DNA of 64,000 nucleotides from Dehalococcoidia bacterium (GTDB lineage: Bacteria; Chloroflexota; Dehalococcoidia; Lucifugimonadales; UBA3495), in contig OZ242042.1 in assembly GCA_965204905.1 (NCBI GenBank), forward strand, positions 3,382,153 to 3,446,152, read 5' to 3'. Below, in pieces: positions 25,383 through 44,881 of the stretch (position 1 is the stretch's first letter; every line of letters starts with the position of its first letter). A model generated the notes under the pieces. That model saw only the letters and a program-made list of their open reading frames with translations. It made no database searches and was not told the origin of the DNA. The translations under genes were made by a program, and so were the position numbers.

Positions 25383-25733
25383 CTACGCCATCGGTTCCAG
25401 CAAGCCGACGAACCGCTCTACTACATCCAATGCATCGGCGACATCCGCAGCTGAGTCAACGTTCTCGTAAAAGTTGTAATGCAGGTGATTGGCGGCCCGT
25501 AAAAGCCGGGTCAGGCCCATGCTGGGATTTTCGTCGGTCAAACGCCGCACCACCACCCAGATATGCCGGTGGGTCTTGTGTTCCCAGCCTCTGCGGTCGG
25601 CGATGGCCTTGACTATCTGGGCAGTGGCACCCCAGCCTTTTTCGGAAGCCTGCCTGAGGTCGCCCGCCGCCAGTTCCGCCCTGGCCTGCGCCAGCAACTG
25701 CCGGCTTGCCGCTTGGTAAGTCTGCGTCGTCAC
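25383..25733 (-). CDS. PaREP1-family (HEPN-like) protein
   Basis: AELAAGDLRQASEKGWGA...ANHLHYNFYE; GTG start with ggagg. Confidence 0.75.
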   Translation of the reverse strand: MTTQTYQAASRQLLAQARAELAAGDLRQASEKGWGATAQIVKAIADRRGWEHKTHRHIWVVVRRLTDENPSMGLTRLLRAANHLHYNFYENVDSAADVADALDVVERFVGLLEPMA

Positions 25734-26149
25734 GTGTCCTCCGTAACCGTCTGGCAGACAAACATTCCGCGTTGGTATGCCATTGATAGGATTGTAGCAC
25801 ACCGCCCCATCAGCCCACGGCCCAATGACACTTCCACCCTTGCCCACACCCTCCATCCATCCTTACCATTTAACTAGCCAACCACCCAACTCACGCTCAT
25901 GGTGCGGTATGTCCGCCTCTGGCGAGTCGAACCACTAGCCTGTCCAATGTCCAACTCCAATCACCGCTCCCCCAAACCCTCCCACTGGCCCGCCAAAACC
26001 GTCAATATCACCCTCAAAACTGCCCGCGCCACCCCCATTTACCCCCGCGTCGCACCCTGCCGCCCTACTCAAATGACCAGAAATGAGCGGAAATGAGCGG
26101 GATTTCGCCAAAATCGCCACATTCAGACCATCAACCCCGAGGCATTCCC

Positions 26150-26482: not shown

Positions 26483-26632
26483 CCATGCCATCAAACCGCC
26501 TGAAACGGAACGCCACCGTGACCGAACCCATACATTGCCGGGCGCTGGGCACATGTATAGAATGATCCAACGTTGTCATATTGCCCCGATTCTGTAATTA
26601 TCAACGACAAAACCAATTTGGAGAGTACATCG

Positions 26633-28015
26633 ATGGCGCTCTGGAGACCGGACCCCACGTTTTACCCATCGGCAAGGTTGGCCATGGAGGCTCCGCAGGA
26701 GCGCCTGGCCTACGTTGCCACACTCAACCCCAACTCGGGTGAGCCTGACGCCATGACCGTGGTGGACTGCGACCCCAACTCGGCGTCGTACTCGCAGGTG
26801 GTCCATTCGGTACCCATGCCCTACCTCGACGACGAGTTGCATCACTTCAACTGGAACGCTTGCAGCGCCGCGCTGTGTCCCTCATCGGCGCACCCGCACC
26901 TGGAACGGCGATACCTGGTGGTGCCATCGCTGGCTAACAGCCGCATCTATATCTTGGACACCCAGCCCGACCCGGCCCGTCCGCGCATCGTCAAGACCAT
27001 CGAGGCGGAGGAAGTGCAGCGGGCCGGCTACTCCCGCCCCCACACCGTACACTGTGGCCCCGATGCCATCTACGTCAGCGCATTGGGTTCCGCCGAGGGC
27101 GACCGGCCGGGCGGTATCATGCTCCTGGATCATTACACCTTTGAACCCATCGGCCCGTGGGAACTGGACCGGGGGCCGCAGGAATTGGCCTATGATTTCT
27201 GGTGGCACATCGGCCTGGACACCATGATGACCAGCGAATGGGGCACTCCCGAAATGTTCGAGCACGGCGTCCGGCTTGAGGACGTGGTCGGGCAGAAGTT
27301 CGGCCACATGCTCCATTTCTGGGACATGCGCCGGCGCTCTCACCGCCAGGCCGTTGACCTGGGCGCCCAGCACCAAATGGCGTTGGAGCTGCGACCGGCC
27401 CACAATCCCACCCGTCACTACGGCTTCTGCGGCGTCGTGGTCAGCACCGAAGACCTGTCCGGCTCCATTTTCCTGTGGTACCGGGACGGCGATGACTGGG
27501 CGGCCCGCAAGATCATCTCCATCCCCGCCGAACCGGCCGAAGCCTCCGAACTGCCGCCGGCCCTGCAACCGCTGGTAGCAGTGCCCCCGCTGGTCACCGA
27601 CATCGACCTCTCCGTGGACGACAGGTTCCTCTACGTGTCCTGCTGGGGCACCGGCAAGTTGCTCCAGTACGACGTGTCCGACCCGTTCAACCCGGTGCAG
27701 ACCGGCGAGCTGGAAATGGGCGGCGTGGTCCGCAAGGCGGGCCATCCCAACGGCGCAGCCCTCACCGGCGGCCCGCAGATGGTGGAAATCAGCCGCGACG
27801 GACGCCGGGTCTATCTGACCAACTCGCTGTACTCGTCTTGGGACGACCAGTTCTATCCCGACGGACTGAACGGCTGGCTCTGCCGCATCGACGCCGACCC
27901 CAACGGCGGCATGTCGGTGAACAAGGACTTCTTCGTCGATTACGGCAAGACCCGCAGCCACCAGGTGCGTCTCCAGGGCGGCGACGCATCATCCGACACC
28001 TTCTGTTTCCCGTAG
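26633..28015 (+). CDS. Selenium-binding protein 56 / methanethiol oxidase (SELENBP1-like)
   Basis: DELHHFNWNACS, PHTVHCG, YDFWW, GGPQMVEISRDGRRVYLTNSLYSSWDDQFYP; no signal peptide. Confidence 0.9.
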   Translation: MALWRPDPTFYPSARLAMEAPQERLAYVATLNPNSGEPDAMTVVDCDPNSASYSQVVHSVPMPYLDDELHHFNWNACSAALCPSSAHPHLERRYLVVPSLANSRIYILDTQPDPARPRIVKTIEAEEVQRAGYSRPHTVHCGPDAIYVSALGSAEGDRPGGIMLLDHYTFEPIGPWELDRGPQELAYDFWWHIGLDTMMTSEWGTPEMFEHGVRLEDVVGQKFGHMLHFWDMRRRSHRQAVDLGAQHQMALELRPAHNPTRHYGFCGVVVSTEDLSGSIFLWYRDGDDWAARKIISIPAEPAEASELPPALQPLVAVPPLVTDIDLSVDDRFLYVSCWGTGKLLQYDVSDPFNPVQTGELEMGGVVRKAGHPNGAALTGGPQMVEISRDGRRVYLTNSLYSSWDDQFYPDGLNGWLCRIDADPNGGMSVNKDFFVDYGKTRSHQVRLQGGDASSDTFCFP

Positions 28016-36716: not shown

Positions 36717-37106
36717 TCAGGCCGGTTGGGCTTCTTCAATGATTACATCGCCGCCGTCCCAGGCATCCATTGCAATCCGGCTGCCTTCCAGCAGTTCCAT
36801 CCCCAGCAAAGGCTGGTCAATGGACTCAAAGACCTCAACGGCGAGAGTGCGACCGTGCCATCTCACCGACGTTCGGTAGTGTTCGAAATTTTCTTCGCTG
36901 CCGCTGGTGACGATGGCTTGATGCTGGCCCACATGGGTCAGTCCCAGTCCGCTGATGTCCGTTGCTGGAAGCACCAACCATCCGGTAAATCCAGTGTCAA
37001 GGATGACATCGTGCTCCCGATAATCTCCGTTAGCGTCCATCACCGGCAGGGTGATCCATGCTTCCAAGCCTCCCTGTTCGTTGCGCTCGACCCGACCACT
37101 AATCAC
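36717..37106 (-). CDS. Clan AA (retropepsin-like) aspartic protease
   Basis: VILDTGFTGWLVLP catalytic DTG motif and PLLGMELL flap motif. Confidence 0.85.
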   Translation of the reverse strand: MISGRVERNEQGGLEAWITLPVMDANGDYREHDVILDTGFTGWLVLPATDISGLGLTHVGQHQAIVTSGSEENFEHYRTSVRWHGRTLAVEVFESIDQPLLGMELLEGSRIAMDAWDGGDVIIEEAQPA

Positions 37107-37374
37107 GTCGCACCGGCTTGATCATGGGGTGCATCTTGTACGTCACCGGCACATCCACCCATTCGTCCCACGTGTAAGCATCCGGACGCCGCTCACGCAA
37201 CTTCCGAACGGCCTCCAGGTGCCCCTTTAGAGGCCCGTCGGCAATCTCGTAGTCGCCGCTTTTGACGTCGATGACCACGATTTTGCCCTTGTGCTCCGGC
37301 CCCAGGGTAGGGCGGATCTTTTCGTTGTAGATTGCGCGGCCGATAGCCGGCACATCCGCTTTGTTGAACGCCAT
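37099..37374 (-). CDS. Small DUF5678-like partner protein
   Basis: GRAIYNEKIRP...KGKIVVIDVKSGDYEI; overlaps the protease start by 8 nt. Confidence 0.65.
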   Translation of the reverse strand: MAFNKADVPAIGRAIYNEKIRPTLGPEHKGKIVVIDVKSGDYEIADGPLKGHLEAVRKLRERRPDAYTWDEWVDVPVTYKMHPMIKPVRRD

Positions 37375-37460
37375 GATTATCGCTCCGTCCAACATTCTAG
37401 CATGGGGAGACGTCAGCATTGGGGTTGTAACCCGCACAGCAACAGGCGTAGGATGTACCC

Positions 37461-40160
37461 ATGACGCCCGAACATTTCATCGCAACTTGGGACAATACCA
37501 CTCTGAACGAGGAGCAGGGCGCGCAGTCCTGGTTCAACGACCTTTGCGACCTCATCGGCCATCCCAAGCCCCTGGGCGATCTTAACGGCCTGACCTATGC
37601 CTTTGAACATCGCGTCGAAACGGGCAAGGCCGACGCCTACTACGAAAATCATTTCGGCTGGGAGTTCAAGACCCACGAGGGGCAGTTGGACGAGGCCATG
37701 CGCCAGGTGCTTGGCTATTCCATGTACCTGAAAACGCCGCCCCTGCTGGTGGTGTCCGCCTTCAACGTCATCCGCATCCGCACCAACTTTCCCGGCATGG
37801 AAAGCGTACAGCGGGAAATCCGCATCGCCGACCTCGCGGAACCGGACACCCTGGCCGTCGTCCAGCGGATTTTCACCGATCCGGACTGGTTCAACACCGG
37901 CAGGAGCCGCGACGACGTCACCAGGGAAACCGCCGCCCTGTTCCAGGCGGTGAGCAACGACATGGCCCGTTCGGGCTACGGCACTGATCCGTCAAGAATC
38001 CGAGAACTGGCGCAGTACCTCAACCAGATCATATTCTGCCTGTACGCCGAGGACGCCGGGCTGCTGCCCGACGGCGCGTTCACCGGCCTGGTGGTGAACC
38101 AGCGGCGGGAACCGGATCGATTCCGGCAGGGCGCGCGGACACTGTTCGCCGAAATGGATCACGGCGGCCTGTTCGGCCCACAGACCATTGAGCATTTCAA
38201 CGGCGAACTGTTCGCCCACGTTCCCGACGTGACGCTGAACACCGCCGCGCTGGAAAGGCTGGCGGAAGCCGCGACCAAGAACTGGAGCAACATCGAGCCG
38301 TCCATATTCGGCACACTGTTTGAGCGCGCGCTGGGTCTCACCGAGGAACGCGCACCGCTGGGCGCGCACTACACCGGCGAGGCCGACATCCGTCGCGTGG
38401 TTCAGCCGGTCATCATGGACGAACTGCGCCGGGAGTGGGCGGCGGTCAGGGCGGAGGTTGAGGGGGTGGGGCATCTGGAGTCATTCCGCCGTCGCCTCGC
38501 CTCCGTAACCGTCCTCGACCCCGCCTGCGGCAGCGGCAACTTCCTCTACGTGGCCTTGCGCTCCCTGCTGGATTTGGAGCGGGAAGTGATTGACTTCGCC
38601 GCCGCCCGGGGCTGGGCCGACGTCGGCAGGACGCCGCTGGTGAACCCGGCCCAAATGATGGGCCTAGAGGTCAACGAGTACGCGGCGCAACTGGCGAAAA
38701 CCGCCCTGTGGATTGGCTATATCCAGTGGCATCAGGCCAACGGTTTTGCCTACACCAACCGCCCGATACTGGACAACATCGACGGCGTTGAATGTCGGGA
38801 CGCCGCCATTGTTCTCAACGACGCCGGCGAAACTACACGCAAAGCGCAATGGCCCGATGCCGATTACATCATCGGCAACCCGCCGTTTCTGGGCGCAAAG
38901 GATATGCTCACCGAGTTGGGCAACGACTACACCGCTCGTCTGCGCCGGACCTACGCCGCCGAACTGGACGGCGCGGTTGACCTGTGCTGCTACTGGTTTG
39001 AGCAGGCCCGAGCGCAGATTGCCGCGGGCAAGGCCAGGCGCGCCGGCCTGCTGGCGACGCAGGCGATACGGTTCAGCAGCAACCGCCGCACCCTGGAGCG
39101 CATCAAGGAAACCGGCGACATTTTCGCCGCCTACGACGACCTGGAATGGAAACCGGAGGAACCCGGCTCCGCCGCCGTCCACGTGTCCATCGTCTGCTTT
39201 GACGACGGCAGCGAAACCGCAAAAACGCTGAACGGCGGGCCGGCATCCGACATCGACACCCGCCTCACCGACGCTGTGCATCTGGACCGAGCGCAGCCAT
39301 TGCCACAGAACAACGGCATTTGCTTCAGGGGTATCGAGAAAGGCGGCCCACTCGACTTGACGCCGGAACAGGCGTCAATAATGCTGGCCGACAGCAACCC
39401 CAATGGCAAGCCCAACAGCGATGTCCTCAAACGCTACGTCATCGGCAGAGACCTTAACGGCAAGCCACAAGAACGTTGGCTGGTTGACTTTGGCGCTATG
39501 CCCGAATCAGATGCGAAACTATACAACTTGCCATACCAGCATTGTCTAAACTACGTAAAACCAGTTCGAGATAAGAATAAGCGCGAACATCGGAGATTGA
39601 ATTGGTGGTTACTTAACGATGCGACGCCAGCATTGGATGCGGCCCTTGCACCGTTAACGCGGTACATTGGCACCTGTCAGGTGTCCAAGCATCGCTGCTT
39701 CCAGTACATAGATGCCGACAATGCGCCGGATGTAACTATCGTCGCTTTTTGCCGCGAGGATGACTACTTTCTAGGGGTACTGGAAAGCCGTTTCCACAAG
39801 GCTTGGACTGCCGCCATTGGCACACAGTTGCGGGAAAAGGAATCGGGCCGGCGCTACATCATCAGCGAGTGCTTTGAGAAGTTCCCGTTTCCGAGTCCGA
39901 CGGAATCGCAGCGTCAGGCCGTAGCGCAGGCGGCGCGAACCCTGGACGAGCAGCGGCGCAACGTCTGCCAACCCAACGGCAGCTACCGCCGCTCGATGAC
40001 CAGCCTGTACAACGAAAACCCGCCGTGGCTGCAAACCGCCCACGCCGAGCTTGATGCCGCCGTAGCCGACGCCTACGGCTGGCCGGCCGACCTGGCGGAC
40101 GACGAAATACTGCGCCGTTTGGTGCGGCTGAACGTGAGCGGCGGGGCGGGGCGGCCGTAG
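37461..40160 (+). CDS. Type IIG/IIL (MmeI-like) fused restriction-modification enzyme
   Basis: N-terminal ADAY...GWEFK nuclease-like motif, VLDPACGSGNFL motif I, IGNPPF motif IV, C-terminal TRD (GVLESRFHKAW...FEKFPFP). Confidence 0.88.
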   Translation: MTPEHFIATWDNTTLNEEQGAQSWFNDLCDLIGHPKPLGDLNGLTYAFEHRVETGKADAYYENHFGWEFKTHEGQLDEAMRQVLGYSMYLKTPPLLVVSAFNVIRIRTNFPGMESVQREIRIADLAEPDTLAVVQRIFTDPDWFNTGRSRDDVTRETAALFQAVSNDMARSGYGTDPSRIRELAQYLNQIIFCLYAEDAGLLPDGAFTGLVVNQRREPDRFRQGARTLFAEMDHGGLFGPQTIEHFNGELFAHVPDVTLNTAALERLAEAATKNWSNIEPSIFGTLFERALGLTEERAPLGAHYTGEADIRRVVQPVIMDELRREWAAVRAEVEGVGHLESFRRRLASVTVLDPACGSGNFLYVALRSLLDLEREVIDFAAARGWADVGRTPLVNPAQMMGLEVNEYAAQLAKTALWIGYIQWHQANGFAYTNRPILDNIDGVECRDAAIVLNDAGETTRKAQWPDADYIIGNPPFLGAKDMLTELGNDYTARLRRTYAAELDGAVDLCCYWFEQARAQIAAGKARRAGLLATQAIRFSSNRRTLERIKETGDIFAAYDDLEWKPEEPGSAAVHVSIVCFDDGSETAKTLNGGPASDIDTRLTDAVHLDRAQPLPQNNGICFRGIEKGGPLDLTPEQASIMLADSNPNGKPNSDVLKRYVIGRDLNGKPQERWLVDFGAMPESDAKLYNLPYQHCLNYVKPVRDKNKREHRRLNWWLLNDATPALDAALAPLTRYIGTCQVSKHRCFQYIDADNAPDVTIVAFCREDDYFLGVLESRFHKAWTAAIGTQLREKESGRRYIISECFEKFPFPSPTESQRQAVAQAARTLDEQRRNVCQPNGSYRRSMTSLYNENPPWLQTAHAELDAAVADAYGWPADLADDEILRRLVRLNVSGGAGRP

Positions 40161-40218
40161 CCGGGTATAATGGTTGAAAGCAGTCGCAAATGATGCCGAT
40201 GAAATGCGAGATGACGCT

Positions 40219-40605
40219 ATGGCTAATTCCGAAGTGACCGTTGCCGAGTTTTTTGACGACCTGAAGCGTCAACGCCGTGCCGACCCGCCGCAAATGCCGT
40301 CCGCATCAGCGATGATTGAACAGGCAAAAAAAGCCCTGCGCCGGGAGCGGAAGAACGGCCCGGCCCTGCTGTTGGCTGCGGTCAACTACCGCATCGGCGA
40401 GATTGCCCCTGGCGCCAACCCCTGGACGGTCATCAACCGAGTCGCCAAAGCTCGCCAACACGCTGGTATTGCATCGTCATATTCTGCCGTGGTGGAGTTG
40501 AAAGCACAGGCCGATCAACACGGGAGCTACGACCGCGAAGACGCAGAGTTGTGCTACGAGTTGGGCGAAATAGTGCTCTCTCTGCTTGACGAGCACTATG
40601 GCTGA
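40219..40605 (+). CDS. Hypothetical protein A1 of a duplicated two-gene module
   Basis: Aligns with 41145-41531 (LLLAAVNYRIGEI / LLLDALEYRIREI; ELGEIVLSLLDEHYG / DIAEIVICHLDLEYA). Start codon uncertain. Confidence 0.75.
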   Translation: MANSEVTVAEFFDDLKRQRRADPPQMPSASAMIEQAKKALRRERKNGPALLLAAVNYRIGEIAPGANPWTVINRVAKARQHAGIASSYSAVVELKAQADQHGSYDREDAELCYELGEIVLSLLDEHYG

Positions 40606-41029
40606 CCTAGCGGCGGCAGATTACCTCGAATATGCGGAATCGCGGTTGCGCGAAGCAGGCGAACGTGGCGAGAAGGCAATGTCAAACGGCTACGGCCACA
40701 ACCTGGGAGAATTGGCGAAAGTCGCATCGCTGATCTGGGACGGCGTTATGGACGTGCTCTCGGCGCTGACAGCGCTGGACGGCGACACCCCCAACGGACG
40801 CTCATCAGACTTGCGACAGTACGCGCGGCAGATCCTGACCAGGGACGAATACAGCCTATGGCGGGATTTGGCCCGGCTGCATAACTTTCAGCACAAACCG
40901 AACCATCCCGAAACCGTGTTCAGCGCTTCCTGCCGAGGGACAGCTTCCCTGCTGGAATTGTTCAACCAACGGCTGCCGACGCAGCTGCAACTGCCGTCAG
41001 AGTGTTGGGAATGGTTGGCGGGGGTTTAG
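40598..41029 (+). CDS. Hypothetical protein B1, PaREP1/HEPN-like
   Basis: YAESRL...GELAKVASLIWD...ARLHNFQHKP; 8-nt overlap with A1. Confidence 0.75.
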   Translation: MADLAAADYLEYAESRLREAGERGEKAMSNGYGHNLGELAKVASLIWDGVMDVLSALTALDGDTPNGRSSDLRQYARQILTRDEYSLWRDLARLHNFQHKPNHPETVFSASCRGTASLLELFNQRLPTQLQLPSECWEWLAGV

Positions 41030-41144
41030 GGAGTCAAGACGATTTGGCAGGCCGCTCTTGCCAGATGAAAGCGTTGGGTTGGCGCGCGAGTACGATAGAC
41101 GGACGTAACCGACGGTACGGGTTTCTCATTTTGAGGAGTTGGTG

Positions 41145-41531
41145 ATGGTTAGCAATAAGAAATTCCGAGAGAAATTGCAGAAACGGCTGGCCGAAGTACA
41201 ATCGGATCCCACAGAACGCAAGTCCGGCGCGCTGGCCATGCTGGACGCCGCGGAGCAGGCCCATCAACAGGGGCAGCAGAACGCGCCCCGGCTGCTGCTG
41301 GACGCGCTGGAGTATCGCATCCGGGAGATTGACCCCGACCCCGACTCTTGGGCGGCAGCAAAACGCATCGCTATCGAGAAGAATGCCTCCGGTATAAAGT
41401 CCGGCTACTGGGGAGCGATGCTGTTCGAGGAAGACGCTCGGCGTGACGGTTGCTACCACGAGGACGACTGGCGAATGTCCTGGGACATCGCCGAAATCGT
41501 CATCTGCCACCTAGACTTGGAATATGCTTAG
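41145..41531 (+). CDS. Hypothetical protein A2 of the duplicated module
   Basis: RBS gaggag; paralogue of A1. Confidence 0.75.
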   Translation: MVSNKKFREKLQKRLAEVQSDPTERKSGALAMLDAAEQAHQQGQQNAPRLLLDALEYRIREIDPDPDSWAAAKRIAIEKNASGIKSGYWGAMLFEEDARRDGCYHEDDWRMSWDIAEIVICHLDLEYA

Positions 41532-41952
41532 CCTCGCGCCGGCGGATTATGCCGGCTATGCCGAATCGCGCCTGACCGTAGCGTGGCGCCGGTTCGACGC
41601 CACGGAGTCACAACCCTACGCGGAACGACGGGGCGAACTGGCGCAAGTCGCGTCGCTGATTTGGGACGCTACGATAGATCTGGTGTCAGCGTTGGCTTTG
41701 TCGAACGGCGTAAGACTGACTGGCCGGTCGAGCGACATGAGCGATTATGCAAAGCACCAATTGCCGGACATCTACGAGGAGTGGCAAGGCCCGGCCAGGC
41801 TGCACAACTTCCAGCACAAACCCGATCACCCGGAGTCTGGATTTCGGCAATCTTGCCAGTCCGCCGGCGCGCTGCTGCCTATGCTCAACGCAGAGCTGCC
41901 GCCGCATCTACAACTGCCGGCGGACTGCTGGGAATGGCTGGCGGGGGTCTAA
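41524..41952 (+). CDS. Hypothetical protein B2, PaREP1/HEPN-like
   Basis: YAESRL...GELAQVASLIWD...ARLHNFQHKPDHPE...CWEWLAGV; 8-nt overlap with A2. Confidence 0.75.
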   Translation: MLSLAPADYAGYAESRLTVAWRRFDATESQPYAERRGELAQVASLIWDATIDLVSALALSNGVRLTGRSSDMSDYAKHQLPDIYEEWQGPARLHNFQHKPDHPESGFRQSCQSAGALLPMLNAELPPHLQLPADCWEWLAGV

Positions 41953-41998
41953 CTCGCCAAGACATTCACCCGGCTGGACGTCTGCGCGACTCAGTCAA

Positions 41999-43096
41999 AT
42001 GGTTCGCTATATCATCCACGCCGACCTGGACGCTTTCTACGCCGCCGTGGAGCAGCTTGACAATCCCGAGCTGCGCGGCAAGGCGGTGCTGGTCGGCGGC
42101 CGGCCCGAGGGCCGCGGCGTCGTCGCCACCGCATCCTACGAAGCCCGCAAGTTCGGCGTCCACTCGGCCATGCCCATGGCCACGGCGGTGCGGCAGTGTC
42201 CCGAGGGCATCATCGTGCGGCCCCGTTTCGACCGCTACCGCGAGATGTCCGCGCGAATCATGGACATCTTCCGCGACGTTACGCCAATCATCCAGCCGGT
42301 CTCGCTGGACGAAGCCTACCTGGACATCACCGAGGCGTCGGCGCAAACCTCGCCCATCGCCATCGCAATAGACATCAAGAATCGCGTCCGCCACGAAGTC
42401 GGGTTGACCGTCTCCGTAGGGCTGGGAACCGGCAAGTGCGTTGCCAAGATCGCCTCCGATTTCCAGAAGCCCGACGGGTTGGTGGTGGTGCCGGAGGGAG
42501 AGGAAGCGGAGTTCCTCGCCTCACTGCCGGTAAACACGCTGATGGGAGTGGGCCCCAAATCGGCGGCGCGGTTGCGGGACGACGGTATCCACACCATCGG
42601 GCAACTGGCGGCGATGCCCGACAGCTGGTTCACCCGGCGGTTCGGCAAACGCGGCGCGAGCATCAGGGACCGCGCTCGCGGTATCGACGACGAGCCCGTG
42701 CAAACCTCGCGGGAGGCCAAGTCCATCAGCAGCGAGACGACTTTCCCGCAGGATCTGAGCGCAGTCGAGGACATTCGCCCCGTCGTGGAGCGACTGTCGG
42801 GCAGCGTGGCCGATTCGCTCAATCGCAAGGGGCTCACCGGCCGCACCGTTACGGTCAAGATGCGCCTTTCCGATTTCACCACCTTCACCAGGCAGACCAC
42901 CCTTGCGGAACCTACCAACGACAACACTGCCATCCTCGCCACCGCCTGGACCCTGCTGGAACGGGAGATGACGCCCGGCCGGGCCTTCCGGCTGCTGGGC
43001 GTCGGCGTATCCGGCTTTGCGGACGCGGCAGAAAATGATGATCGGGACGCCGCCATCAGGATTACCACGCCTCCGCAACCGCAGTTGCGTTTGTAG
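41999..43096 (+). CDS. dinB: DNA polymerase IV
   Basis: IIHADLDAFYAAVE, SYEARKFGVHSAMP, SLDEAYLD, AKIASDFQKPDG. Confidence 0.93.
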   Translation: MVRYIIHADLDAFYAAVEQLDNPELRGKAVLVGGRPEGRGVVATASYEARKFGVHSAMPMATAVRQCPEGIIVRPRFDRYREMSARIMDIFRDVTPIIQPVSLDEAYLDITEASAQTSPIAIAIDIKNRVRHEVGLTVSVGLGTGKCVAKIASDFQKPDGLVVVPEGEEAEFLASLPVNTLMGVGPKSAARLRDDGIHTIGQLAAMPDSWFTRRFGKRGASIRDRARGIDDEPVQTSREAKSISSETTFPQDLSAVEDIRPVVERLSGSVADSLNRKGLTGRTVTVKMRLSDFTTFTRQTTLAEPTNDNTAILATAWTLLEREMTPGRAFRLLGVGVSGFADAAENDDRDAAIRITTPPQPQLRL

Positions 43097-43165: not shown

Positions 43166-43903
43166 ATGACCACTGTGAAACGTGAAATCCCGCCAGCTTC
43201 CGAAGAGCGATGGACGCCTTATCCCGAATTGCCGCGGGAGCGCAAGGATATGATGCAACTACGGCCCGCCAACTACATTCAGGAGATGTTGCTAAGCATC
43301 CTGACACCGGGCTTCTCATACCACGACCATCCAACCATCTACATCGCCAGCGAAACGCCGATTTACTACGGCGAAAGGGCACCCGGAACGAGCGGCGCCC
43401 TACCCCACGTGATTCCCGACTGCCTGGTGGCCTTTGACGTGGATACTGCGGCCATCTGGGAACGAATCGGCTACGACCCCATACAGAACGGCAAGCCGCC
43501 CGATTTTGTCGTGGAGGTCGCATCCCGGCGAACCTGGCGAAACGACTCCGGGCACAAGCGGAACGTGTACGAGATGGTGGGCGTACCGGAATACTGGCGG
43601 TTTGACCCCACCGGGGGACGGTTCTACGGGCAGGCCATCATCGGCGAGCGGCTGGTCAACGGCCAGTACGAACGGCTACCGATGGTTGAGTACGACGACG
43701 GCAGCGAAGGGGCCACCAGCGCCGTACTGAACCTGAACTTCCGCTGGCGGGAGCGACGGTTCTGGATTCACAACCCCGCTACCGGGGAGGAGTATGAACA
43801 TCCACAAGAAATGGCTGCCCGGCTGGAAGCAGGGAAGGAACGCTTGCAAGCGGAGATCGCTCGACTGGAGGAGGAAAACCGCCGTTTGCGGGGCGAGGGA
43901 TAA
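43166..43903 (+). CDS. Uma2 (DUF820) family protein with a C-terminal coiled coil
   Basis: IPDCLVAF, KPPDFVVEVAS, GVPEYWRFDPTG. Confidence 0.85.
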   Translation: MTTVKREIPPASEERWTPYPELPRERKDMMQLRPANYIQEMLLSILTPGFSYHDHPTIYIASETPIYYGERAPGTSGALPHVIPDCLVAFDVDTAAIWERIGYDPIQNGKPPDFVVEVASRRTWRNDSGHKRNVYEMVGVPEYWRFDPTGGRFYGQAIIGERLVNGQYERLPMVEYDDGSEGATSAVLNLNFRWRERRFWIHNPATGEEYEHPQEMAARLEAGKERLQAEIARLEEENRRLRGEG

Positions 43904-43910
43904 CCGCCGA

Positions 43911-44669
43911 TTACCGGAACAGGTCCTTGTCCGGGTCTCGCACGATGGCGCGGCTGTCGGCGTCCTCCATTCGCTCGTATGGGTAGCCTTTGATCAGCGC
44001 CACCGGCACTCCCAGCAGCTTGCCCGTCACCAGTTCCGCCGTCGCCGCCAACTCGTCGGCCACCGCGATGGTGGTGGTGTGCAGCTCATTGCCGTGAGGG
44101 TCGAACTCGCCCACGTAGCTGATCACCGGGTTGAATCCGGCCACGCCGATGGACACGTTGATCGCCCCGTTGCGCCAGGGCCGGCCGAAAGTATCCGAAA
44201 CCAGCACGGCGGCATCCACGCCCAGGCGTTCGCGGATGGCGTCGCGGATGCGGCGGGCGGATGCGTCCGGGTCAACAGGCAGCAGGCAGATGGCGTTGTC
44301 GCCGGGGATGTTGGAGGCGTCGATGCCGGCGTTGGCGCAGATGTAGCCGTGGTAGGTCTCGCTGATTATCACGCCGCGATCCATCCGCACGACACGGCGG
44401 CTCTCGCGCAGGATCATCTCGGTGTGGCGAGGATCCCGGCGGTGTCCCTCGGTGATCGCCACCGCTAACGGTGACGCTTCCACCTCGTCAATGGTCATCA
44501 CGCGCCCCTCAGCCTTTGAGACGATCTTCTGTGTCACCACCACCACGTCGCCGTCCCCGATGGGCGTGCCCTGGGCAGCGGCGGCGTCAATGATCTGAAC
44601 GGCCAGGTCGTCCCCGGCCTGCACTTCGGGCAGTCCTTCGATTCCAACGGCGCGAATCTCCGGCGGCAT
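43911..44669 (-). CDS. cofE: Coenzyme F420-0:L-glutamate ligase
   Basis: [49 protein letters not shown]. Confidence 0.92.
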
Positions 44670-44881
44670 GGCGCACCTCTCCAGCACGAATGAATGGCTT
44701 GCTCAGCAGTATGGATACCCTGTTGCTACCAGTGTACCATCCGCGCCGCTGTGACTGTCATTGCGAGCGTTCGCCAAGCGGGTACGCAAGAGTGACGATT
44801 ACCTCTTGCCTCTGTGCCGGCCAGCAGTTTATCATCCTGCCATCATCACAGCTCAACGATTTCTGGATCTCTGGTACATCC

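Follow-up and report, generated by a model that had tools for sequence, protein, structure and literature searches.

Two adjacent gene pairs of the predicted PaREP1/HEPN type in a Dehalococcoidia genome, tentatively read as toxin-antitoxin-like modules

HEPN proteins act on RNA, and the PaREP1/PaREP8 family (PF05942), listed there as HEPN-T (Parep1/8), is one branch of this superfamily (Anantharaman, 2013, PMC3710099). It is a branch with a name, regarded as archaeal and functionally blank; the titles and abstracts of the papers found to name PaREP1 describe no experiment on its function. According to Anantharaman, PaREP1/8 “lacks R but H is conserved”, and only “tandem repeats” are mentioned for PaREP1 (PMC3710099). 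A connection to antitoxins was earlier drawn from archaeal paREP1-RHH fusions (Makarova, 2009, PMC2701414). The present study deals with four consecutive genes, named here A1, B1, A2 and B2, at positions 40174-41952 of a 64,000-nucleotide stretch from a Dehalococcoidia bacterium (contig OZ242042.1, positions 3,382,153 to 3,446,152), which is referred to below as the window. These genes represent two cognate copies of one two-gene module that is self-contained and translationally coupled. Judged from sequence profiles and structure models, A and B are predicted to form small bundles of helices and to belong, as very diverged members, to the PaREP1/HEPN-T branch within the HEPN superfamily. B appears to be the “active-looking” type, with the PaREP1-type tryptophan and an L-H motif extended to LHNxQH, and A the acidic, degenerate “partner” type, in which no catalytic residue seems to be universally conserved. 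Since the His motif is kept by one partner and is absent in the other, we tentatively read the pair as a selfish, toxin-antitoxin (TA)-like conflict module with B as the effector and A as a neutralising paralogue, and assign this reading a rough probability of 0.4-0.45.

The order A1-B1-A2-B2 is made up of four co-directional open reading frames (ORFs) on the + strand. A1 (40219..40605, 128 amino acids) is a predicted all-helical, acidic, non-catalytic PaREP1-like protein of the partner type. Its longest ORF, 40174-40605, begins with TTG 40174, and alignment with orthologues that begin MA(N/T)xE makes ATG 40219 the likely start. B1 (40598..41029, 143 amino acids), which is HEPN-T/PaREP1-like and carries W47 and L94-H95-N96-F97-Q98-H99, shares 8 nt with A1 (ATGGCTGA, 40598-40605). 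A2 (41145..41531, 128 amino acids), again of the partner type, has its longest ORF at 41139-41531; its likely start is ATG 41145, which stands behind GAGGAG and is supported by alignment with orthologues. B2 (41524..41952, 142 amino acids, His-bearing type) overlaps A2, likewise by 8 nt (ATGCTTAG, 41524-41531). An arrangement of two paralogous pairs with the same 8-nt overlap, as described in the initial annotation of this DNA, was confirmed: A1 and A2 share 34% identity over 109 amino acids (E 1e-20), B1 and B2 share 53% over 143 amino acids (E 2e-51), and the two B motifs pointed out there, GELA(K/Q)VASLIWD and ARLHNFQHKP(N/D)HPE, are present in both B1 and B2. The spacer between the pairs (41030..41144, + strand, 115 nt) contains the GAGGAG at 41133-41138, 6 nt ahead of the A2 start; no terminator-like site on the + strand, no promoter-like site and no Rfam match was found in it. 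The -10-like hexamer TATAAT at 40166..40171 (+ strand), read from the sequence, lies 6 nt past the stop codon of the upstream restriction-modification (RM) gene and is possibly the module's own promoter; TATAAT or TATGAT also precedes A in the related loci L003, L047 and L049. The scan for consensus promoters and terminators returned no full -35/-10 promoter and nothing on the + strand. In a repeat search, the only similarity detected was that between the coding regions of B1 and B2, and there were no flanking repeats that would hint at a transposable cassette.

The pairs stand in a genome with many PaREP1 genes. A PF05942 search matches 33 genes here and 7-82 in each of the other genomes of the genus; most other searched genera of the order are without the family. 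The PaREP1 gene used as comparison is located in the window (25383..25856, - strand; Pfam PF05942 E 1.8e-16, 60.5 bits) and carries GDLRQASEKGWGA and HLHYNFYE. An iterated hidden Markov model (HMM) search starting from this gene collected 65 ORFs in this genome, many of which are arranged in coupled pairs. In at least nine of these pairs the upstream protein is without the WGA and LH motifs and the downstream protein has both, and no coupled pair shows the reverse order with the His-bearing gene first. The two genes mostly overlap by 4 nt, with the start on the stop (examples: C1:264539-265503, 941349-942409, 3081923-3082923, 3648202-3649457 and 3672047-3673005). Because they are paralogues, these pairs, at least nine in number, do not represent nine independent events. 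In the first example, the upstream partner (C1:264898-265503, - strand) joins a degenerate PaREP1-like domain to DUF433 (Pfam 8.1e-20), which is predicted to be an antitoxin domain that binds DNA. Since the layout with the degenerate gene first and the His-bearing gene second recurs among ordinary PaREP1 genes, A-B can be regarded as a far-diverged branch of this lineage-specific expansion.

No model of Pfam or NCBIfam matches A1, B1, A2 or B2, and PF05942 (gathering score 24.4 bits) gives no match to any of the four even at E ≤ 1. Because A and B fail this model, they are best called a new, remote sub-branch of PaREP1/PaREP8. The iterated HMM built from the window PaREP1 reaches B2 at only E 0.057, and aligning the B profile by hhalign with just the window PaREP1 sequence gives E 0.085, which on its own is too weak. 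Against PaREP1 profiles from the same genome, the E-values were 6e-4 and 1.7e-4 for B and 2e-4 and 2e-5 for A, and control runs with reversed and column-shuffled templates gave E 0.07-0.99 in 36 of 36 cases. The link between B and PaREP1 is convincing because profiles of same-genome paralogues and these controls were used. The value of 1.7e-4 was obtained for B against the downstream, His-bearing PaREP1 proteins (89 columns), compared with E 0.012 against the upstream partners; A gave E 2e-5 against the upstream partners (probability 77%, 97 columns) and E 0.067 against the downstream, His-bearing proteins. A direct comparison of A with B by hhalign revealed no detectable similarity (E 0.28). 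Taken at the level of profiles, the link of A-B to the PaREP1 family is real but remote.

In the wider B family, W47, L94, H95, W139 and L140 are invariant and N96, Q98 and H99 are near-invariant. The hhalign alignment places W47 of B on the W of the PaREP1 WGA motif and L94-H95 on the PaREP1 LH, and thereby equates H95, rather than H99, with the PaREP1 histidine. W47 stands in the context W-D/S/G/K-A/G, and B shares the traits of PaREP1 proteins, namely a kept His, an Arg that is not conserved and the W-G-A of helix 2. B1 and B2 read R93-LHNFQ-H99 (Rx5H), and R93 is present in at least 90% of the close homologues. With its histidine kept and R93 variable in the wider family, B agrees with the published description of PaREP1/8 (PMC3710099). 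The same motif is missing from A, which has E95 at the LH position and is without W47, L94-H95, N96, Q98 and H99 of the B family; its own conserved positions form a helical core (PxLLLxA..R, DxW, Y, E) that includes no universal histidine. The median isoelectric point is 5.1 for A, an acidic protein, and 6.4 for B.

Confident AlphaFold2 monomer models were generated from the family alignments and compared with the PDB using Foldseek, a check that the initial annotation had proposed. The B1 model (predicted local distance difference test score, pLDDT, 95.5) is all-helical, with helices at 2-29 and 33-60, an insert at 69-85 and further helices at 88-99 and 105-124, and thus has the HEPN architecture of an up-down bundle of four helices in which an insert separates helices 2 and 3. 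Its best PDB matches are HEPN proteins drawn from several families (2hsb, 1ufb, 1wol, 1o3u and the HepT toxins 7ae9, 7bxo, 6m6w and 5yep), with probabilities of up to 0.97, template modelling (TM) scores of 0.5-0.62 and weak E-values (0.4-4). The A2 model (pLDDT 92.3) is likewise all-helical, and its top matches are 2q00/2jpu with a probability of 1.00 and TM scores of 0.59-0.65; 2q00 is a PaREP1/8 structure (Anantharaman, 2013, PMC3710099). When the A and B profiles and the window PaREP1 were searched against PDB sequences, only chance matches to designed repeat proteins and an electron transfer flavoprotein subunit were obtained. The earlier suppositions that B resembles PaREP1/HEPN and that A may be a degenerate HEPN-fold partner are borne out by these matches, by the placement of W47 and L94-H95 of B, and by the alignment of A, which has no universal His, with the class of upstream partners. 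The assignment of A and B to fold and family, as far as sequence and models indicate, is fairly secure, and it is probable that A-B is a heteropair of the PaREP1/HEPN type.

Protein searches collected 67 B clusters and 45 A clusters at 90% identity, and 35 representatives at 50% identity among 1.84 billion proteins; the named sources are all metagenome-assembled genomes of Dehalococcoidia/Chloroflexi or marine and sponge metagenomes. Of 41 genomes searched, namely this one and 40 relatives, 12 carry the family, and the copy number is 0-5 per genome. It is a tiny family with a patchy distribution within one marine/sponge Dehalococcoidia genus, and the phage and plasmid collections contained no A-B match. 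Within the fetched loci, an A gene lies directly upstream of each B gene (23/23), and the 8-nt overlap is kept in 19 of the 22 distinct pairs from this and other genomes. Three pairs follow one another in tandem in the genome G006. Such arrays are located in the slot beside secF, with three pairs in L005 (4725-7273, corresponding to G006 C5:1390154-1392261) and two pairs in L013 (7589-9275); in one sub-clade of these arrays the 8-nt overlap is replaced by a gap of 2-3 nt. Also found in the same genus were proteins in which a distant B-like domain with the motif QLHNIQHR is followed by C-terminal ankyrin repeats (Ank_2 up to 1.4e-39) (P0112, P0113 and P0120; L064 3183-4253, - strand; L065 3090-4103, - strand).

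Between orthologues, dN/dS is 0.06-0.34 for both A and B, and the genes are therefore considered real and under purifying selection. The A tree and the B tree are congruent and show the same clades, from which it follows that the pairs are inherited and diverge together as cognate units. The first window pair (A1-B1) falls into clade I together with secF-slot pairs of other genomes, and the second (A2-B2) belongs to clade III, the clade of the copy between proB and proA, which is also the nearest relative of A2. Since these are different old clades in both trees, the window pairs are old, distinct paralogues that were brought side by side. A recent local tandem duplication is ruled out by both trees, and the initial description of the module as tandemly duplicated and then diversified on the spot is misleading.

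In the TA-like reading, B, probably as a dimer, would use its His motif to act on RNA in the manner of other HEPN proteins. A would be made at a fixed ratio to B through the translational coupling, would bind B and keep it inactive, in the simplest case by an A-B heterodimer that replaces the B-B dimer, and loss of A would release B. A is read as antitoxin-like because it is encoded upstream, is acidic, has one relative among the upstream partners that is fused to DUF433, and because of the archaeal paREP1-RHH fusions. The genes show the anatomy of type II TA systems: they are small, co-directional, coupled, strictly co-occurring, accessory and multi-copy. Of the proposal in the initial annotation that this is a new TA or abortive-infection module, the coupled two-gene anatomy in TA style stands, but the module is not wholly new, being a diverged branch of a named family that has expanded hugely in this genus. 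A bolder version is that PaREP1-type heteropairs form a TA class in which a catalytically dead toxin paralogue serves as the antitoxin and neutralises by “subunit poisoning”, where the A-B heterodimer takes the place of the B-B dimer that would build the composite active site of HEPN proteins. In that case, marine/sponge Dehalococcoidia would possess an insulated network of dozens of cognate pairs in each genome, comparable to VapBC in mycobacteria. As a whole, this version is speculative and unlikely.

The position of the window pairs directly behind an RM gene raises the question of whether they are an anti-phage abortive-infection or defence effector tied to this type IIG enzyme within a defence island. 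The upstream gene (37461..40160, + strand, 899 amino acids), which is context and outside the module, was correctly recognised in the initial annotation as type IIG/IIL: its product is MmeI-like type IIG according to Pfam (MmeI_Mtase 2.8e-33, MmeI_hel 4e-11) and PADLOC (REase_MTase_IIG 4.8e-229). The RM-A-B adjacency also occurs in L049, L002 (decayed) and L001 (RM split) and is seen in four related genomes overall, clustering of HEPN-T genes with R-M operons has been reported (PMC3710099), and a Uma2 nuclease-like gene and a second methylase are found elsewhere in the window. However, the four RM-linked loci are one orthologous block and do not represent independent events. In L049, a single pair suffices between the same RM gene and dinB, and the RM gene is broken in both L001 and L002. 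The block in L002 (2078-6384, OZ241987.1) is decaying as a whole, with a frameshift of the MmeI-like gene near residue 671, a GAA-to-TAA nonsense codon in A, and in B a change of ATG to TTG and a 7-residue deletion in the last core helix. The genome holds five A-B pairs at four chromosomal places, only one of which adjoins a restriction gene: two pairs in the window, and one pair each between secF and a zinc-dependent alcohol dehydrogenase (Zn-ADH) gene, between proB and proA, and beside an hpaB-like gene. Orthologues in other genomes occupy the same slots and a fifth one between two dehydrogenase genes. Counted across genomes, a restriction gene is next to one of the five slots and the other four are without a defence neighbour, so that the enrichment near defence genes expected in the initial annotation was not observed; its suggested PADLOC check (PADLOC-DB 2.0) likewise returned 0 families for A1, B1, A2 and B2 at E ≤ 1, a result that counts against a tie to defence and against the TA-like reading as well. 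That the pairs are part of an RM operon is ruled out by the four other slots without any RM gene. A defence role tied to the RM gene is therefore quite improbable, the defence link of A-B is weak, and the adjoining restriction gene is an accident of one insertion site and no partner. A role of the pairs as subunits or chaperones in their host operons (proBA, secDF, dehydrogenases) is scarcely credible: the pairs do stand between genes of one operon in the same orientation, but the host operons are unrelated to one another, the same clade is found in different slots, and most searched genomes of the genus are without a B gene and hence without a pair.

Somewhat unlikely is a harmless A-B heterodimer that binds RNA or a nucleotide and acts in regulation or stress adaptation with neither toxin nor addiction, comparable to HEPN domains without catalysis such as MtlR or nucleotidyltransferase substrate-binding domains. 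Several observations suit such a binder and weigh against the TA-like reading. R93, the arginine of the HEPN Rx4-6H motif, varies to Q, M, W or A in the wider B family, and HEPN domains without the motif may be mere RNA binders (Anantharaman, 2013, PMC3710099); B is near-neutral and not basic; and most copies sit in conserved slots within housekeeping gene clusters, are stable in the same slots of several genomes, and look long resident, hardly freshly mobile. The ankyrin-fused B-like genes stand alone with no A-like gene upstream, and a B-type domain is therefore not necessarily lethal without A. To the disadvantage of the TA-like reading, it must be added that A has no DNA-binding domain recognisable by Pfam, NCBIfam or the family searches, and that the Foldseek matches have weak E-values (0.2-4), a common situation with small bundles of helices. 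A harmless binder, on the other hand, is at odds with the patchy presence of 0-5 copies within one genus and with the paralogue expansion, the tandem arrays and the decay in L002, which are habits of accessory conflict genes. In addition, the invariant His and the near-invariant N, Q and H on one helix point to chemistry over plain binding. On balance, we prefer the TA-like conflict module with the tentative probability given above.

The genes around the module place the block in its local context. To the right lies a dinB-like gene (DNA polymerase IV; 41996..43096, + strand), named from its N-terminal sequence. In 13 genus relatives (L051-L063), the 1.5 kb upstream of dinB contain neither an A nor a B gene, and together with the single-pair arrangement in L049 this identifies the RM-plus-pairs block as an accessory insertion. 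In 6 of these 13 relatives, dinB is directly preceded by a cofE-like gene of the same strand. The cofE gene of the window (43911-44687) is located downstream of dinB and encoded on the opposite strand; a Uma2-family gene (43166-43903) separates the two. The cofE/dinB rearrangement points to a local inversion or insertion that may also have brought the RM gene and both pairs. Just upstream of the RM gene, at 36717-37437 (- strand), there are two overlapping small ORFs of 129 and 112 amino acids without a Pfam match; the first has a DTGF-type motif, which we take to be reminiscent of retropepsin-like aspartic proteases. The window PaREP1 gene is adjoined by a full-length homologue of the selenium-binding protein SBP56 (26573-28015, + strand; Pfam 4.4e-187).

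The locus adds putative far-diverged PaREP1 relatives in bacteria that are invisible to Pfam, and pairs in which a degenerate and a His-bearing paralogue are firmly combined and co-evolve, within a Dehalococcoidia genus that reaches 7-82 PaREP1 genes per genome even at the Pfam level. If the pairs are TA units with a dead paralogue, they would follow a neutralisation principle that was not found in the literature searched and would open a way to learn what the whole family does; harmless pairs would be another orphan paralogue expansion. The fixed heteropair of a degenerate and a His type with an 8-nt overlap does not appear in PMC3710099 or PMC2701414, and nothing relevant was returned when full texts were searched for degenerate or inactive HEPN partners.

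Among the described systems, PaREP1/PaREP8 resembles A-B in being all-helical with approximately 120-145 amino acids and in having many copies per genome, tandem arrangement and no MNT partner; no MNT gene flanks any examined A-B locus. PaREP1/PaREP8 shares with B the kept HEPN His, the Arg that is not conserved and W-[GDS]-A in helix 2. However, neither A nor B reaches the Pfam model, the motif is LHxNFY in PaREP1/PaREP8 as opposed to LHNxQH in B, and the family was described from hyperthermophilic archaea, whereas A-B occurs in Dehalococcoidia. HepT/MntA (HEPN/MNT, type VII TA; 5yep, 7bxo, 7ae9) is, like A-B, a two-gene, multi-copy, accessory system with the HEPN protein as the presumed effector, and HepT structures are matched by the B model. 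The partner of HepT is a nucleotidyltransferase, whereas A is all-helical and PaREP1-like with no nucleotidyltransferase match; neutralisation of the AMPylation type is therefore excluded, and the mode would be unlike that of HepT/MntA. The canonical Rx4H of HepT is also not conserved in B. In type II TA operons (VapBC, DUF433/COG2442-PIN pairs), as in A-B, a small acidic upstream gene overlaps the downstream effector gene, and the pairs are cognate, co-diverging, multi-copy and patchy, with DUF433 present on one related upstream partner. They differ in that A has no detectable DNA-binding domain, and in that A and B are apparently distant paralogues of one fold, which is unusual for TA pairs. 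Finally, the archaeal paREP1-RHH fusions (PMC2701414) combine a PaREP1-type HEPN domain with an antitoxin-type DNA-binding domain and hint that some PaREP1 domains are on the antitoxin side; while the archaeal protein is fused to RHH, A is unfused here, and the fusion in this genome is with DUF433 in another pair.

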